A stretch of 64,000 nucleotides of DNA from an uncultured Cetobacterium sp. Lineage in GTDB: Bacteria; Fusobacteriota; Fusobacteriia; Fusobacteriales; Fusobacteriaceae. A program made the translations under genes and the position numbers. Below the pieces are notes generated by a model. The model had not been told where the DNA came from and ran no database searches. It was given only the letters and a program-made list of their open reading frames with translations. Location of the stretch: positions 215 to 64,214 of the forward strand of contig CAAFWD010000215.1 in assembly GCA_900766645.1 (NCBI GenBank), given 5' to 3'. This document shows, in pieces, positions 16,576 to 48,259 of this stretch; the stretch's first letter is position 1; each line of letters opens with the position of its first letter.

Positions 16576-18915
16576 ATGAGGATAAGAAAAGACTCATTAT
16601 TAGTAAAGATAATCTTTTACAATGATATAGCTATATTTATAACCTCTATTTTAATTGCGATGGCTGTAATAATAACTTCTTTTCAGGCTATGGAAAGAAG
16701 AGTGGAAGATACAACTGAAAATAAGATGAAGCTACTTGTTACAAATTATGAGAGCTATTTTAGAGAAGTTAGAAATGATGTTTACAAAGAGATCGGAAAA
16801 CACCATATCTCGGAAGGGAATCAAAAGATTGCGGAAACATTAAAATATAACTTATTAAAAAGAGATTTTAAAAACTACTATGAGTGTGTAATTACGATTT
16901 TGTCAGCTGATGGAAATCTTTTAGGTGAGTACGGAAGTGATAGCCATTTAGGAACACTAAATGATAGTAATATACGGATATTATTAGCAAATGCTAAGAA
17001 AAAAGAGGTAGAAGAGGACGGATATTATTTAGCTAAAATAGGACCTTTGATTTATTCGAGGATTGTAATTCCTTATGGAGATGAAAATACAACAAATTAT
17101 ATAGTAGTTTCTATTCCTATAAATTTAAACTTTTTGAAATCTTTAGAAGAGGGATTAGGCTTAAGCTCAGCAGACAAATCAATCTTTTTAGTAAATGGTA
17201 AATCAAAAGATGGGGTTCAAAGCAAAAAGTTTTTTTCAGAAAAAGTATACGATGAGATAGCTAAAAAAGATTATTCTTACTATTATTTGAATGAAAAAAT
17301 AGATGGGGATAGTTATTATGTAGGTGTTTATAATCTTATTGAATATACAGATGAATATTTAGGAAGTTTTGTTTTGGCAATATCAAAAGAGAAATTAATT
17401 GAAGAAAAAATAATGACAACTATTTACATAGGGGCATTAGTACTATTTATCATGATATTAAGTTCTACAATTTCAAATAAAGTTTTTAGAAAACTGTTAT
17501 TACCACTAAGTGAAATAGCAGATTTAGCAGATAAAATTTCTAATGGTGAAAAGATTAGAGATATAAAATTAATGGGAGAGGGAGAAATAAGAACTCTTTC
17601 AGATTCATTTAAAAAAATGATCGAGAAATTAAATATTGCTCAAAAAGATTTAAAAAATCAAAATAGAGAGCTATTAAGAAATATTGAAAGAATTGAAGCT
17701 ATAGATAGATTATTAATGGGAATGAATATAGAGAAGGATACATATGAGACAATTAGAAAGTTAGTATCTGGATTTACATCTGAAGTCGGATTGGGATATG
17801 GAAGAGCTATGTATTTTAGATACAGTAGAGAAAATGATTACCTAATCGGAGAAAGAGTTTCTATAAACGGAAGTTTGAGTGAAGAAAGCTCAAAAGGATT
17901 CAAATTCCAAGTTGCGGATTTAAAAGAATTAATAAGATTCACAAAAGTTTCAGTGAGAGATAATAATTTATTAGCACAATCTTTTAATGGTCAAAAAATA
18001 ATTTATAAAAACGATAGTGGATATAAATATGATTTAGGTAGCGATTTATTAAAAGCGATTGGGCTTAAAAATTTCTTTATTTTTCCAATTCATGGTGCTG
18101 GAAAATATTCAGGGATAATTATAGTAGATAACTACACAAAAGATGTAAAAATAAATCAAGAAGAGTTAGAGTTATTAAATTTATTAGCTATTAACTTTTC
18201 AATTGGAATAAACAATAAGGAGACAACAGCTGAAATTTTAGAAAATCAAAGAGTTATGACAATAGAGAAATTAGCTACAAGATTTTTAAAACTAAGAGGG
18301 GAAGTTGTTGAAAAGCTCCTTCAATGTATAGATGATGAAAATTCAGGAGAGAGAATTATACAGGAGTTAGATGAGATAAAATCTTATTTAAAAAGAATAA
18401 AAGAGGATAATGTATCCTTAAGAGATTACTCTGAACACTCTCAAATGAAAATGGAAAGATTATGTTTAGATAAACTATTGAATAAAGTTATAGGAAGCTA
18501 TAAGGAGAAATTTGAGAAGGAAAATATTTCAGTTTCATTTTTCAGTGCAACTAGTGGAGTTATTTTAGGTGATGAAAGTTGTTTTGAAAAAGTAATCAAA
18601 GAATTACTTGAAAATTCGTATATAGCTTTATTAAAAAGAAAAAGTAATAGAAGAATAAATATAATTCTTTCAAAAAGAAAAATTAACGAAAAAATAGAGT
18701 TAAAAATAATTGATAATGGTGTTGGAATGACTAAAAAGCAGTTAGAAGACATCTATGAACCATTTATTACAAATTCACCTCAAAATTTAGGTTTAGGGCT
18801 ATTCTATGTGCACAAAATAATAAAAGATCACAAAGGGGTTATAAAGCACTTTACCGAAGAGGGAAAAATGACAGAAGTAAAAATAACTTTAAATGCATAT
18901 AAGGAGGAAGTGTAA
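16576..18915 (+). CDS. Membrane sensor histidine-kinase-like protein (2 TM, HAMP, GAF-like, HATPase_c), apparently lacking the phospho-His
   Basis: Two hydrophobic helices, HAMP (PL..I...ADKI..G, GEI..L..SF..M), N box ELLENS, G1 DNGVG, F box IYEPF, G2 LGLGL. Confidence 0.8.
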
Positions 18916-25202: not shown

Positions 25203-25220
25203 TATCACATAAAAAAACAA

Positions 25221-25303
25221 ATCATCAAGAGAAACTGAGGGACTGGCCCTATGACGTTTCAGCAACCTACCTAAGAGGTGTGGTGCTAATTCCAGAAAGA
25301 TGA
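25221..25303 (+). ncRNA. SAM-I riboswitch aptamer (compact, no P4 helix)
   Basis: TCATCAAGAG...GAGGGACTGGCCC.ATGA...CAGCAACC...GGTGCTAATTCC.AGAAAGATGA; upstream of metK. Confidence 0.93.
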
Positions 25304-25321
25304 CTTATTAAAGAGCATTCA

Positions 25322-27180: not shown

Positions 27181-27255
27181 GCCCCGTTCGTTCAGTGGTA
27201 AGGACAATAGATTTTCACTCTATAAACAGGGGTTCGATTCCCCTACGGGGTACCA
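27181..27255 (+). tRNA. tRNA-Glu(TTC)
   Basis: Acceptor GCCCCGT/ACGGGGT, anticodon stem ATAGA/TCTAT with loop TT-TTC-AC, GGTTCGA T arm, encoded CCA. Confidence 0.93.
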
Positions 27256-27257
27256 TT

Positions 27258-27333
27258 GGGGATATAGCTCAGTTGGGAGAGCGACGCACTTGCACTGCGT
27301 AGGTCAGCGGTTCGACTCCGCTTATCTCCACCA
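27258..27333 (+). tRNA. tRNA-Ala(TGC)
   Basis: Acceptor GGGGATA/TATCTCC with G3:U70, anticodon loop CT-TGC-AC, CCA end. Confidence 0.96.
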
Positions 27334-27335
27334 TC

Positions 27336-27412
27336 GCCTAGATAGCTCAGTTGGCTAGAGCACTCGGTTCATACCCGAGCGGTCGAAGGTTCGAATCCTT
27401 TTCTAGGCACCA
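27336..27412 (+). tRNA. tRNA-Met(CAT), probably elongator
   Basis: Acceptor GCCTAGA/TCTAGGC fully paired (not initiator-like), loop TT-CAT-AC; lacks the C4-G69/C5-G68 pattern typical of tRNA-Ile2. Confidence 0.88.
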
Positions 27413-30391: not shown

Positions 30392-33300
30392 TTATATCTT
30401 AGCTATATCAAATACATCTAAGTCCATTTTGTCTACATTTAACTCTTGAACTTTAATAACTGCATTTAATGTATCTATAGATGTTAATACTTCAACACCA
30501 TATTCTATAGCTGTTCTTCTTATTTTAAATCCATCCCTTTGAGCATCATTTGCTTTTGTAGGAGTGTTTATTAATAAATCCACTTCTCTATTTTTTAGAA
30601 GATCTAATATATTAGGAGAATCTTCATTTATTTTCTTAACAGCTGTTGCTTCAATTCCATTCTCTTTTAAGAATTTTTGAGTTCCTTCTGTTGCAAAAAG
30701 TTCACATCCTAAATTTTTAAGTGATTGTGCAACTGGTAAGAATTCATCTTTATCCTTATCTCTTATTGTTAATAAGATCTTCCTATTTCTTACGTTTTGA
30801 ACTCTTCCTCCTCCTAGAAGTCCTTTAAATATAGCTTCATCTGCAGTATTTCCTACTCCTAAAACCTCTCCTGTTGACTTCATTTCTGGTCCTAAAGAAA
30901 CTTCTACTCCTGATAATTTTTCAGTTGAGAATACTGGTACCTTTACGGCTACTACTGATGGTTTTTTATAAATCCCTGTACCAAACCCTAAGTTCTCTAG
31001 CTTTTCTCCCATTATAACTTTTGTTGCTATATCAATTACAGGCACTCCTGAAATTTTTGCAATATATGGAACTGTTCTCGATGATCTAGGGTTAACTTCA
31101 ATTACATATAACTCATTTTCATAAGCAATAAACTGAATGTTCATCATCCCTTTTACATTTAATTCTTTAGCTATTTTTCTTGTGATTTTTTCTAATTTCT
31201 CCTCTGTTCCCTCATATAAATTTTGAGGCGGATAAATCGTTATAGAGTCTCCTGAGTGGATTCCTGCTCTCTCTAAGTGTTCCATTACTCCTGGAATTAA
31301 TATCTCTTCTCCGTCACATATAGCATCTACTTCTAGCTCAATACCATTTAAGTATTTATCTATAAGAACCGGATTCTCTGGATCTCTTTCAAATGAAGCT
31401 TGTAAATAATTTACTAAGTTATACTCATCGTGACAGATTTCCATTCCTTGACCACCTAATACATATGAAGGTCTCACAAGTACTGGATATTTAACCTCTT
31501 CAGCTATTTTCTTTCCAGCTTCAATATCCCAAACTGCTCTTCCTTTTGGTCTTTTTATGTCCAGTTTTTCCATAATATCTTCGAACTTCTCTCTGTCCTC
31601 TGCAGCGTCTACCATCTCTGCTGAAGTTCCTAATATTTTTATTCCTCTATCTCTTAAATCGTTAGCTAACTTTATTGCTGTCTGTCCACCAAATTGAATT
31701 ATTACTCCTTCTGGTTTCTCTTTATCAATTATATTCATAACATCTTCAGTTACTAATGGTTCAAAATATAATCTGTCTGCTGTTGAGAAATCTGTTGAAA
31801 CTGTTTCTGGATTGTTATTTATAATGATACTTTCAATCCCCATATTTCTTAATGTTTTGATTGAGTGAACAGTACAATAATCAAACTCTATTCCTTGTCC
31901 AATTCTGATTGGCCCTGAACCAATAACTATTACTTTTCTCTTATCCGTTGTTTCAACTTCATCAAATTGGTCATACGTTGAGTAGAAATACGTTGAATCT
32001 GCCGCGAATTCTCCAGCACAAGTATCAACCATTTTATAAACTGGCTTTATTCCATACTCTCTTCTTTTTCTTGCAATATCCTCTTCGCTTACATTCATAA
32101 GTTGAGCTATACCTTTGTCTGCAAATCCTTTTTTCTTTACATTTTTTAAGAACTTCTCTGTTAAATCTTTAAGCTCCATTTTCTTCATTAACTCTTCTTG
32201 CTTTACTAACCATTCAAGTTTTTCCATAAAAAACTTGTCTATTCCTGTTAATTTCTGAAGTCTCTCTTTCACATATCCTCTTCTCAACATTTCAGCCACT
32301 ACGAAGATTCTTTCGTCATCAGGTCTTACTACAACTTCTTTTAACTCTTCCATACTCATTTTTTCAACTACTGGATGCTCTAAGTTGTATCTTCCAATCT
32401 CTAAAGATCTTAATCCCTTTAAGAAAGCTGCTTCAAAGTTATTTCCTATCGCCATAACTTCTCCAGTTGCCATCATTTTTGTTCCTAATCTCTTATTAGC
32501 TTTTTTGAATTTATCAAATGGCCACTTAGGAATTTTCACAACTATATAGTCTAAAGCAGGCTCAAAACATGCAAATGTTTTTCCTGTAACTTCATTTACT
32601 ACTTCATCTAATGTGTATCCTAATGATAATCTTGTAGCAACTCTAGCTATTGGATAACCTGTAGCTTTTGATGCTAACGCTGATGATCTAGATACTCTTG
32701 GATTTATTTCAATAATAGCATACTCAAATGATTTTGGATGAAGAGCAAACTGTACATTACACCCTCCTACTACTCCAATTTCATCAATTATTTTTAAAGC
32801 TGATGTTCTTAACATTTGATACTCTCTATCTGAAAGAGTTTGTGATGGAGCAACTACTATTGAATCTCCTGTATGTATTCCAACTGGGTCAATATTTTCC
32901 ATGTTACAAACTGTTATACAATTTCCATCTTTATCTCTTATTACTTCATACTCTACCTCTTTCCACCCTAAGATAGACTTTTCAATTAAAACTTGTCCAA
33001 CTCTTGAAAGTTTTAATCCTTTTAGTAAGATATCTTCTAACTCTTGTGGAGTATCTGCTATTCCTCCACCAGTTCCACCTAATGTATACGCTGGTCTTAC
33101 TACTACTGGATATCCAATTTCTCTAGCAACTTTGAATCCTTCTTCTAGACTCTCAACTATTTTACTTTCGATTACTGGCTCTCCTATTTTATCCATAGCT
33201 TCTCTGAACAGTTCTCTATCTTCTCCTCTTTTAATAGATTCGATAGATGTTCCTATTACTCTTACATTATACTTCTCAAGAATTCCTTTATCATTTAATT

Positions 33301-33598
33301 CAACAGCCATATTCAATGCTGTTTGTCCACCCATTCCAGCTAAAATTGAATCTGGTCTCTCTTTTGCTATTACCTTCTCTACAAATTCTGCTGTAATTGG
33401 CTCTATATAAATTTTATCTGCTACAGCTTTATCCGTCATTATTGTTGCTGGATTTGAGTTGATTAATACTACTTCAATTCCCTCTTTTTTTAAAGTCTCA
33501 CAAGCTTGCGTTCCTGAGTAATCAAACTCTGCTGCTTGTCCTATGATAATTGGTCCTGAACCTATTACTAATGTTTTCTTTATCGACTTATCTAACAT
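30392..33598 (-). CDS. carB: Carbamoyl-phosphate synthase large subunit
   Basis: [17 protein letters not shown], two ATP-grasp halves ([19 protein letters not shown]), MGS domain. Confidence 0.98.
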
Positions 33599-33632: not shown

Positions 33633-34685
33633 TTATCCCTCTATAACTTTTAAGAAATCATCAAATAGATATTGAGAATCTGATGGTCCTGGCCATGCTT
33701 CTGGGTGATATTGAACACATAATATTCTATGTTCTACACTTCTCATTCCCTCAATTGAATTGTCATTTAAGTTTATATGTGTAACTTTCATAGACTCTGG
33801 AACTTGATCTACAACATAACCATGATTTTGAGATGTTATAAATATTCTATTTTTCTCTAAATCTTTAACTGGATGGTTACATCCTCTATGTCCATATTTT
33901 AATTTTTTAGTTGTTCCTCCTAAAGCCCACGCTAATAATTGGTGCCCTAAACAAATTCCTACAATAGGAAGTTTCCCAACTAATTTCTTTATTTCATTTA
34001 TTACTCCTGTTAACTCAGCAGGGTCTCCTGGTCCATTCGATAGGAACACTGCATCTAAATTATAAGATAATAACTCTTCTGCCGTTACGTTCCAAGGGAA
34101 TACTATTTGATGTACTCCTCTTTCTTGGAATGATCTTAGAATGTTTTTCTTAACTCCAAAATCTACTACTCCAATTCTTTTCCCCTCTCCAGGAATTTCA
34201 TAAATCTCTTTTGTACTTACTCTTTCTACTGCATCTGTATTACTAAAGTTTTCAAAGTATTCGTTAATCTCTTTTTGAGTTAACTCTTTAGCTGTTATTA
34301 GAGCTTTCATCGCTCCCTCTTCTCTGATTATTTTAGTTAGGTGTCTTGTATCTACCCCTTTGAATCCTACAACTTTATGCTGTCTTAAGAATCCATCTAA
34401 AGTCATTTCACATCTAAAGTTATTTGGAAGTTTTGCATCCTCTTTGATTATGAACCCTTTTAACTTTATTCCATCAGACTCCATATCCTCTAAATTTATT
34501 CCGTAGTTTCCAACCATTGGGTAAGTCATAACAACGATCTGTCCATAATAAGATGGATCAGTTAATAGCTCCTGGTATCCAGTCATTCCTGTATTAAATA
34601 CAAGTTCCCCTACACTGTCACCTAATTCTCCAAAAATCTTTCCTTCAAAACTCATTCCATTTTCAAGAATTAATTTTCCTTTCAT
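33633..34685 (-). CDS. carA: Carbamoyl-phosphate synthase small subunit
   Basis: GELVFNTGMTGYQE.LTDPSY, SNGPGDP, GICLGHQ, QYHPE. Confidence 0.98.
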   Translation of the reverse strand: MKGKLILENGMSFEGKIFGELGDSVGELVFNTGMTGYQELLTDPSYYGQIVVMTYPMVGNYGINLEDMESDGIKLKGFIIKEDAKLPNNFRCEMTLDGFLRQHKVVGFKGVDTRHLTKIIREEGAMKALITAKELTQKEINEYFENFSNTDAVERVSTKEIYEIPGEGKRIGVVDFGVKKNILRSFQERGVHQIVFPWNVTAEELLSYNLDAVFLSNGPGDPAELTGVINEIKKLVGKLPIVGICLGHQLLAWALGGTTKKLKYGHRGCNHPVKDLEKNRIFITSQNHGYVVDQVPESMKVTHINLNDNSIEGMRSVEHRILCVQYHPEAWPGPSDSQYLFDDFLKVIEG

Positions 34686-34710: not shown

Positions 34711-34740
34711 AAAAAAAGGAATATGAAAATTCATATTCCC
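34711..34740 (-). terminator. Attenuator/terminator in carAB leader
   Basis: Minus strand GGAATATGA-ATTT-TCATATTCC-TTTTTTT, about 25 nt before carA ATG and downstream of the promoter. Confidence 0.85.
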
Positions 34741-34877
34741 TGCTTTATATAAATATTAAAATTAAAAACTAAAAAATTAAAAAATACATTTTTTAAAAAT
34801 GAAATAAATAAATTTAAAAACAATAATGGCGACTTAGATTTCTTCTTTTTTCTAACTCTCGAAATGTTTTTTAACAT
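34731..34877 (-). CDS. Putative 48-aa carAB leader peptide (not in ORF track)
   Basis: SD AAGGAGGT then ATG; MLKNISRVRKKKKSKSPLLFLNLFISFLKNVFFNFLVFNFNIYIKQGI*; TGA lies in the terminator 5' arm. Confidence 0.7.
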   Translation of the reverse strand: MLKNISRVRKKKKSKSPLLFLNLFISFLKNVFFNFLVFNFNIYIKQGI

Positions 34878-34913
34878 CTATTTATAACCTCCTTAAATTT
34901 TGCTCTGAGAATG

Positions 34914-34942
34914 AGTATATACTAATTTTAAAAACTTGTCAA
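34914..34942 (-). promoter_or_regulatory. carAB sigma70 promoter
   Basis: TTGACA-17 bp-TATACT on minus strand. Confidence 0.85.
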
Positions 34943-48141: not shown

Positions 48142-48259
48142 GCTTGGTAACGATAGCTACGGTGATACACCCAGTAACATTTCGAACCTGGAAGTTAAGA
48201 CCGTAAACGCCAAAAGTACTTGGGGGGCAGCCCCCTGGGAGGATAGGAAGTTGCCAAGC
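48142..48259 (+). rRNA. rrf: 5S rRNA (orphan, no adjacent 16S/23S)
   Basis: Helix I GCTTGGTAAC/GTTGCCAAGC, ACACC, CGAAC loop, GAAGTTAAG, AGTACT, GGGGG-CAG-CCCCC, GGGAG.ATAGG; about 118 nt. Confidence 0.93.

Follow-up and report, generated by a model that had tools for sequence, protein, structure and literature searches.

The carAB leader and its counterpart before pyrB

The window, by which we mean the whole 64,000-nucleotide stretch of Cetobacterium DNA analysed here, carries on its minus strand carA (33633..34685; carbamoyl-phosphate synthase small subunit), preceded by its own Shine-Dalgarno (SD) site at 34698-34693, and, downstream of it, carB (30392..33598; large subunit). The relatives of this carA with 90-93% identity bear the name Cetobacterium. 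The carA leader, on the same strand, begins with a sigma70-type promoter (TTGACA-17-TATACT, 34914..34942) that matches the consensus at 11 of 12 positions. Promoter-like sites as such are common in this neighborhood (15 between 34000 and 36000, with 11.2 expected); this one is the best of the 15, and it is kept, together with its spacing, in the genus relatives of the leader. Transcription is predicted from the promoter to start near 34907-34906. An SD site, AAGGAGGT (34887..34894), stands 9 nt before the ATG of a leader open reading frame (ORF) of 48 codons (34731..34877), the first third of which is purine-rich and basic and the remainder U-rich: codons 1-17 hold 11 U in 51 nt, and codons 18-43 (34749..34826) hold 51 in 78. 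This second stretch, a predicted UTP-sensitive pause region, includes the motif TTTAATATT (34760-34752), which is also present in the pyrB leader. The frame runs into an intrinsic terminator (34711..34741; pair probabilities 0.87-1.0) with the arms GGAATATGA (34739-34731) and TCATATTCC (34726-34718) followed by U7 (34717-34711), and the 5' arm ends with the leader TGA. The gene upstream of the leader is divergent, so this is not the terminator of a preceding gene. The promoter, SD site, ORF, U counts and TGA in the 5' arm had been described in an earlier, sequence-only reading of this DNA, and we found all of them where it had put them, base for base.

Windows of 78 nt with at least 51 T make up 0.02% of those in the genome, and T-rich windows of this length are spread over many loci (81 with at least 50 T). 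The leader peptide matched no Pfam family (E<=1) and no NCBIfam family (E<=0.01), no Rfam family covered the pyrimidine leaders in a scan of the window or in the carA and pyrB loci at E<=1, and the orthologous ORF of C. somerae is annotated as a hypothetical protein only. Elsewhere in the window, on the plus strand, lie a SAM riboswitch before a 384-aa MetK-like ORF (25219-25306), three tRNAs (27181-27409) and a 5S rRNA (48143-48259).

A paralogous leader, again with promoter, SD, ORF and terminator, precedes the pyrB operon of the same genome (contig C134); its ORF starts with GTG, has 39 codons and stops inside the terminator loop. In this operon pyrB was identified by TIGR00670 and pyrE among the PRTase matches, and the remaining genes were read from their translations as pyrK-D-F-C. 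The same module, consisting of an SD site, a short U-rich ORF and an overlapping intrinsic terminator, with the antiterminator absent, stands before both carAB and pyrB. A scan of 714 upstream regions in this genome found a terminator-like site in 131 and an SD-ORF reaching the terminator in 22, of which four, including carA and pyrB, have at least 50% U before the hairpin. The third of these is an 82-codon frame that is likely to be a real 84-aa membrane-protein gene, and the fourth (L356:97-260) covers a tandem glycine riboswitch that precedes an amino-acid symporter and is a false match. With these two non-leader matches removed, the U-rich version of the module is found only on pyrimidine units. 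Ornithine carbamoyltransferase was found in none of five genomes of the genus, of which four are 98-99% complete; the product of carAB thus seems to be used for pyrimidines alone.

Two leaders of other kinds were noticed in this genome. Upstream of a predicted sodium-dependent transporter at 16723 (L354, contig C191), a 25-codon leader with three terminal Trp codons is followed by a terminator and looks like a classical Trp attenuator, in a genome of the runaway type described below. Upstream of a MetN-like ABC ATPase (L355, contig C64), a 23-codon leader with five internal Met codons is followed by hairpins and a U tract and is a candidate Met leader-peptide attenuator.

Conservation across Fusobacteriaceae and constraint on the leader

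A match to carA was found in 119 genomes and one to pyrB in 114, and from these we surveyed the regions upstream of 84 carA and 90 pyrB genes; the survey leaves out genus g14 and the pyrB of g23, and the family tallies leave out six carA loci of the order's other families (L025-L030, 46-49% identity). With a promoter-anchored rule for calling starts, the module was called in 146 of the 174 Fusobacteriaceae regions (72/84 carA, 74/90 pyrB), spanning 13 genera. The 28 uncalled regions comprise three that are truncated, ten recovered by the first calling rule, one miscalled under both rules, five pyrB copies inside an operon behind carB, two arginine-operon carA copies directly behind argJ, in which the module is absent, and seven loci of genus g21 (L092, L094, L098, L099, L144, L161, L165), in which neither the pyrimidine leader module nor pyrR was found. 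Genus g21 still has the purine module described below (L365). One surveyed PyrB (L031:1327-2391) is extended at its C-terminus by ∼55 aa that include four cysteines and weakly match PyrI (TIGR00240, E 0.0034), possibly a partial fusion with the PyrI regulatory subunit.

The reading frame is open to the hairpin in 146 of the 152 loci that have a terminator and an SD start. Among the 139 distinct leaders, the other two reading frames are open in 13 each, and shuffling gives a mean probability of an open frame of 0.058. All 21 full-length leaders of L001-L022 retain the promoter, the SD site (with its core in 21/21), the start codon and the terminator; indels in the ORFs of these genus leaders preserve the frame, with single-base slips confined to the stretch immediately before the hairpin. 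The stop codon itself moves: it lies in the 5' arm in 5 of the 21 and past the terminator, in the carA SD or beside the ATG, in the other 16. Thus the stop within the 5' arm, to which the earlier reading had drawn attention, is true of the present leader but is not a conserved feature. Across all 146 leaders the stop ends between -8 and +85 nt from the 5' end of the hairpin (12 before it, 107 within it, 27 beyond it). Since stop sites vary and the frame holds, the conserved property would be that the ribosome reaches the hairpin, not the point at which it stops. In L004 and L007-L021 the stop lies in the carA SD or abuts the ATG, which could add translational coupling, and hairpin-terminated transcripts of these leaders would have no stop codon.

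The median U share of the last 60 nt before the hairpin is 55%; it is at least 50% in 107 of the 146 leaders, a level reached by 1.1% of CDS windows in the genome, and below 45% in 11. A hairpin is retained with differing sequences in all 13 genera according to per-sequence folds, on which the claim of a conserved hairpin rests; for seven terminators from different genera RNAalifold gave a weak consensus (-0.15 kcal/mol, 6 pairs), because the terminator arms do not align. The U-rich module was found in none of 30 NCS2 permease loci and none of 4 pyrG loci, which served as negative controls. We also looked for a C-rich mirror of the module on pyrG and for modules on uracil and xanthine permeases, and found neither. 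The pyrG leaders of four genera (L378-L381) have a conserved short hairpin, a U-run loop and a U tail, with no leader ORF; pyrG itself was not found in the 84%-complete assembly of this genome (G000) or in G044. The genome scan and the family survey both support a restriction to pyrimidine biosynthesis units, and comparing the leaders reveals the expected combination of a conserved SD-ORF-U-tract-terminator geometry with an unconserved peptide (146/174 regions, 13 genera). On this comparative evidence the leader module is real, conserved and pathway-specific.

Folding gave no sign of a competing structure: no antiterminator was found in any of 146 folds, the 5' arm pairs upstream in 0 of 146, and opening the 3' arm by force costs 13.4 kcal/mol. 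Folding of the U-rich strand back onto its own leader SD, which appears in the minimum free energy structure, was rejected at z -0.19 relative to shuffled sequences. A search for pyrR (NF003549) detected the gene in 20 of the 22 g14 genomes, and the remaining 14 genera, with 109 genomes, gave no match (this genome is 84% complete and most same-genus genomes exceed 90%). The PyrR-binding loop RF00515 was not found in this genome, and was found in all three g14 genomes used as a positive control, two of them scoring below gathering. The absence of an antiterminator, first suggested by a single leader, extends to the 146 folds, and the absence of the pyrR gene to the 109 genomes outside g14. The module has in common with PyrR attenuation of the B. 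subtilis type (RF00515) a terminator in the leader of a pyrimidine operon; PyrR attenuation is used by the sister genus g14, whereas neither pyrR nor an antiterminator was found in the module genera. In four Clostridium/Bacillota carA leaders (L336, L339, L340, L313), a hairpin resembling the PyrR loop of L412-L414, with no Rfam match at the gathering threshold, overlaps the SD of a short ORF, and in L336, L339 and L313 the called ORF stops inside the terminator or past it; translation of these leaders may be under PyrR control.

The leader peptides range from 25 to 87 aa and give no alignment across genera, as predicted for an unconserved peptide. In the last 20 codons before the hairpin, codon counts, which come from related, non-independent leaders and have this genome as their only background, lean towards U: the ATT share of Ile is 0.64 (0.47 in the genome, 0.49 in membrane-protein genes), the GTT share of Val 0.71 (genome 0.59), the TTT share of Phe 0.92 (0.83) and the AAT share of Asn 0.94 (0.81), and Tyr behaves likewise. 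The third positions of Thr and Leu-CTN are not U-enriched (0.42, 0.48), and ATT is not enriched within this genus alone (34:38 in carA leaders, 23:28 in pyrB leaders). Over the 24 codons nearest the hairpin, synonymous divergence (pS) is 0.173, compared with 0.591 in the first 14 codons and 0.491 in the carA CDS. The corresponding pN/pS values, 0.68 for the last 24 codons and 0.33 for the first 14, are below 1, so some constraint at the amino-acid level may exist. Of 55 occurrences of the motif TTTAATATT, 51 are in the frame that encodes F-N-I; in four pyrB leaders the motif encodes a stop. F-N-I occurs in the last 15 codons of 56 of the 139 distinct leaders and is absent from 83; where it occurs, it is spelled with TTT AAT in 56/56 (genome 163/207) and with ATT in 48/56 (82/207 for the full triplet in the genome). 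Because the peptide and its stop vary, the frame always reaches the hairpin and the U-rich synonymous sites are constrained, the signal appears to lie at the RNA level, and it is most likely that of a pyrL-type UTP attenuator with a sequence unrelated to pyrL.

The same data bear on two explanations that place the function in the peptide. The first is a nascent-peptide or codon-dependent stall just before the hairpin, involving the basic N-terminus and the Phe/Asn/Ile-rich tail with its F-N-I, through which a metabolite or a tRNA shortage would block termination. The recurrence of F-N-I in one frame and the pN/pS values speak for it, and the Trp-rich and Met-rich leader peptides elsewhere in the genome suggest that ribosome-stalling control is in use; it is nevertheless improbable in our judgement, since most leaders lack F-N-I, those that have it never depart from TTT AAT, the same DNA motif is a stop in four leaders and the peptides cannot be aligned across genera. 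Moreover, with the antiterminator absent, a stall further upstream would favor termination. Sensing of arginine, specifically, was rejected as unlikely, since no ornithine carbamoyltransferase was found and 22 of 70 carA leaders are without any Arg codon.

Under the second explanation, the ORF product would be a small membrane protein with a role of its own, and termination would be constitutive or under an RNA-binding protein. This agrees with the basic N-terminus and the hydrophobic stretch after it (in the present peptide the best 19-residue Kyte-Doolittle mean is 1.76) and with the hypothetical-protein annotation in public records. We consider it very unlikely: 41% of the 139 peptides reach a 19-residue mean of 1.6, lengths vary more than threefold in the range given above, single-base slips before the hairpin freely alter the length and C-terminus, and the purine-operon counterparts discussed below have hydrophilic peptides. 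Furthermore, the stop ends inside or beyond the hairpin in 134 of 146 leaders, and the terminated transcripts of 27 would contain no stop at all.

Proposed ribosome gating, pausing and coupling

Sequence comparison documents the parts of the leader and their geometry, shows that they are conserved in the family and stand on both de novo pyrimidine units, and reveals a constraint at the nucleotide level. From these we infer that a ribosome translates the leader ORF and blocks the hairpin, and that UTP is the quantity sensed; a ribosome-gated UTP sensor of the pyrL type, built from a conserved ORF that overlaps the intrinsic terminator, is the probable function of the carAB leader. At low UTP, RNA polymerase would pause in the U tracts, and the ribosome translating the leader would close the gap and cover the 5' arm of the terminator, so that carAB is transcribed; at ample UTP, polymerase would outrun the ribosome and terminate. 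The position of the stop, between -8 and +85 nt from the hairpin, fits occlusion by the ribosome, and in E. coli a terminator 5 bp after a stop codon is repressed by translation (PMC4824070).

The closest known arrangement for the pyrimidine leaders is E. coli pyrL-pyrBI, in which a short leader ORF overlaps a uridine-rich stretch and an intrinsic terminator lies inside the ORF (PMC3641672, PMC4824070, PMC5021804). As measured here, E. coli pyrL has 44 codons, 88 nt from start to hairpin and a stop at +47 nt, and ends 3 nt before pyrB; this stop position is close to the +45 to +54 subtype seen in 16 of the 21 genus leaders. In contrast to E. coli pyrL, the Fusobacteriaceae module has a far higher U share and stands also on carAB. 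E. coli pyrL is just 34% U before the hairpin, which makes U share a crude proxy. E. coli carAB is controlled at initiation by ArgR, PepA, PurR, RutR and UTP-dependent reiterative transcription (PMC6524683). Reiterative transcription at a U run after the start (AAUUUG) is a feature of pyrBI; no T3 run was seen directly after the predicted transcription start of the carA leader. No homology to the PyrL peptide was detected among Pfam (E<=1), NCBIfam or Rfam profiles, and we therefore do not file the leader in the pyrL family. Amino-acid attenuators of the trpL type resemble the module in that a short translated leader controls an intrinsic terminator. They work through regulatory codons and an antiterminator, with >20 bp between the leader ORF and the terminator (PMC4824070), whereas in Fusobacteriaceae the ORF reaches the hairpin, the antiterminator is absent and many carA leaders lack Arg codons.

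The host lineage differs from E. coli in a further respect: Fusobacteria are classed as organisms of runaway transcription and E. coli as coupled (PMC13323073). This genome shows the signature of runaway transcription. Among its gene-following terminators, 379 of 566 start within 12 nt after the stop codon (median 8); the same rule, applied to 158 kb of E. coli, gave 3 of 20 (median 25). Thus general transcription-translation coupling, which the sequence-only reading had taken its model to imply, does not follow. The logic of pyrL requires polymerase to be ahead at ample UTP and to be caught only when it pauses, and a runaway background is compatible with it. In such a polymerase-ahead lineage, termination would be the default and pausing would create the coupling, which at these leaders would be local and conditional on pausing, not constitutive.

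The NusG of this genome has R-N-T at the motif position; an N81/T82 pair marks the pause-promoting NusG of B. subtilis (PMC12288461). The leaders contain on average 3.5 (carA) and 2.7 (pyrB) TTNTTT sites, at which a B. subtilis-type NusG may lengthen pauses. With an N-T NusG and about three such sites per leader, the U tracts could be constitutive pause sites and not UTP sensors, so NusG may aid the UTP mechanism or be the basis of its main rival, which we take up together with the purine operons.

Rho was present in all five genomes tested, and in B. subtilis a high T content is reported to help direct Rho to its targets (PMC13323073). Rho might therefore load on the U-rich stretch unless the ribosome masks it, and the hairpin would then serve chiefly as a pause or a 3' end. 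This explanation has the slimmest chance of those considered: the leaders are poor in C (4-10% by codon position) and short (73-214 nt from start to hairpin), and a canonical hairpin with a U tract is present in every genus.

A purine-operon counterpart and implications for the family

In the purE operon of this genome (L358:377-530, contig C148), a purine riboswitch (RF00167, 78.8 bits) with its own terminator, bearing a C at what we take to be the guanine-discriminator position, is followed on its 3' side by a second SD-ORF-terminator module with an A-rich ORF. Neither this mirror arrangement nor the module on the pyrB operon lay within the view of the sequence-only reading. Among 67 purE regions scored (three more stand outside the score), the leader ORF reaches the hairpin in 35, and most of the others have purE inside an operon. 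The purE leaders of this genus average 0.62 A and 0.20 U, with ATT and GTT shares of 0.29 for Ile and 0.23 for Val; TTNTTT is absent from 24 of the 35 purE leaders, and the AAA share of Lys in purine leaders, 0.75, is below that of the genome (0.83).

In operons that start with fhs or purL, the module stands 3' of the riboswitch in 8/8 loci of g15, in single loci of g17, g21, g22 and g23, and also in g18 and g14. For these last two genera it was called in L366 (g18) and in L252 and L254 (g14), and inspection by eye added L370 (g18) and L253 (g14). A content is 0.47-0.67 in the eight g15 loci and 0.33-0.45 in four loci of g18, g21, g22 and g17 (0.33 in L366), and the g14 leader L254 is U-rich (U 0.47). 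The purine mirror varies from strong to weak among genera. Taken over all loci that combine riboswitch and module (L358, L186-L229, L252-L254, L270, L359-L373), the leader is A-rich in most genera, and we regard the A-rich module as a candidate ATP-sensing attenuator in series with the purine riboswitch. At another locus (L271:65-474), three consecutive purine riboswitch aptamers precede purL.

The g15 loci suggest a variant of this arrangement. At five fhs loci of g15 (L359, L361, L362, L364, L371), the purine riboswitch lacks its own terminator, and in eight loci a predicted hairpin covers the leader SD (probability of pairing 0.74-1.00, a value without shuffle comparison). With an SD-hiding hairpin and no riboswitch terminator, translation of the leader would relay the riboswitch signal to the downstream terminator.

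These counterparts bear on the main rival to UTP sensing, in which the ribosome-gated terminator reads translation capacity or growth rate: NusG-stabilized pauses at TTNTTT sites would have a fixed duration, and ribosome loading or elongation speed would set the read-through. The NusG motif, the mean numbers of TTNTTT sites and the purine operons that share the layout with leaders that are not A-rich (L254, L366) are all consistent with it. On the other hand, composition tracks the pathway, with U-rich leaders on pyrimidine units and A-rich leaders, mostly free of TTNTTT, on purE, and the U-rich version is confined to pyrimidine units in the genome-wide scan; we therefore consider a readout of translation rate unlikely.

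The closest model for the purine module is Salmonella mgtM, a short ORF with an adenine stretch and an unconserved peptide through which ATP is read by coupling (PMC3641672). This leader of mgtCBR switches between alternative stem-loops, with no intrinsic terminator described, and there high ATP turns on a virulence/Mg2+ locus. In the purine module, by contrast, the ORF overlaps an intrinsic terminator, the operon is biosynthetic and low ATP is expected to switch it on. In the titles and abstracts searched, with most subscription journals outside the scope, we found no description of a purine-biosynthesis attenuator that senses an NTP in series with a riboswitch, of an A-rich leader behind a purine riboswitch or of such leaders in Fusobacteriota.

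Taken jointly, the pyrimidine and purine leaders admit a tentative reading, which we put forward as possible: most Fusobacteriaceae may use one repressor-free device, in which the U-tract leaders of carAB and pyrB sense UTP and the A-tract leaders of the purine operon sense ATP in series with a guanine-type riboswitch, so that both branches must be low. The device would operate by local coupling induced by pausing in a runaway phylum, and in some genera the riboswitch would act only by hiding the ribosome-binding site of the leader ORF.

In bacteria of runaway transcription, among which Fusobacteria are classed (PMC13323073), ribosomes are not expected to shield terminators, and here is a family-wide regulon whose geometry is sensible only if the ribosome reaches the hairpin in time. 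The leaders are natural substrates for testing whether NTP-starved pausing imposes coupling in runaway cells. The module would supply the missing pyrimidine control in genera in which PyrR was not detected, including Cetobacterium, and, if this interpretation is true, many of the hypothetical small membrane proteins annotated before carA and pyrB would be regulatory by-products.
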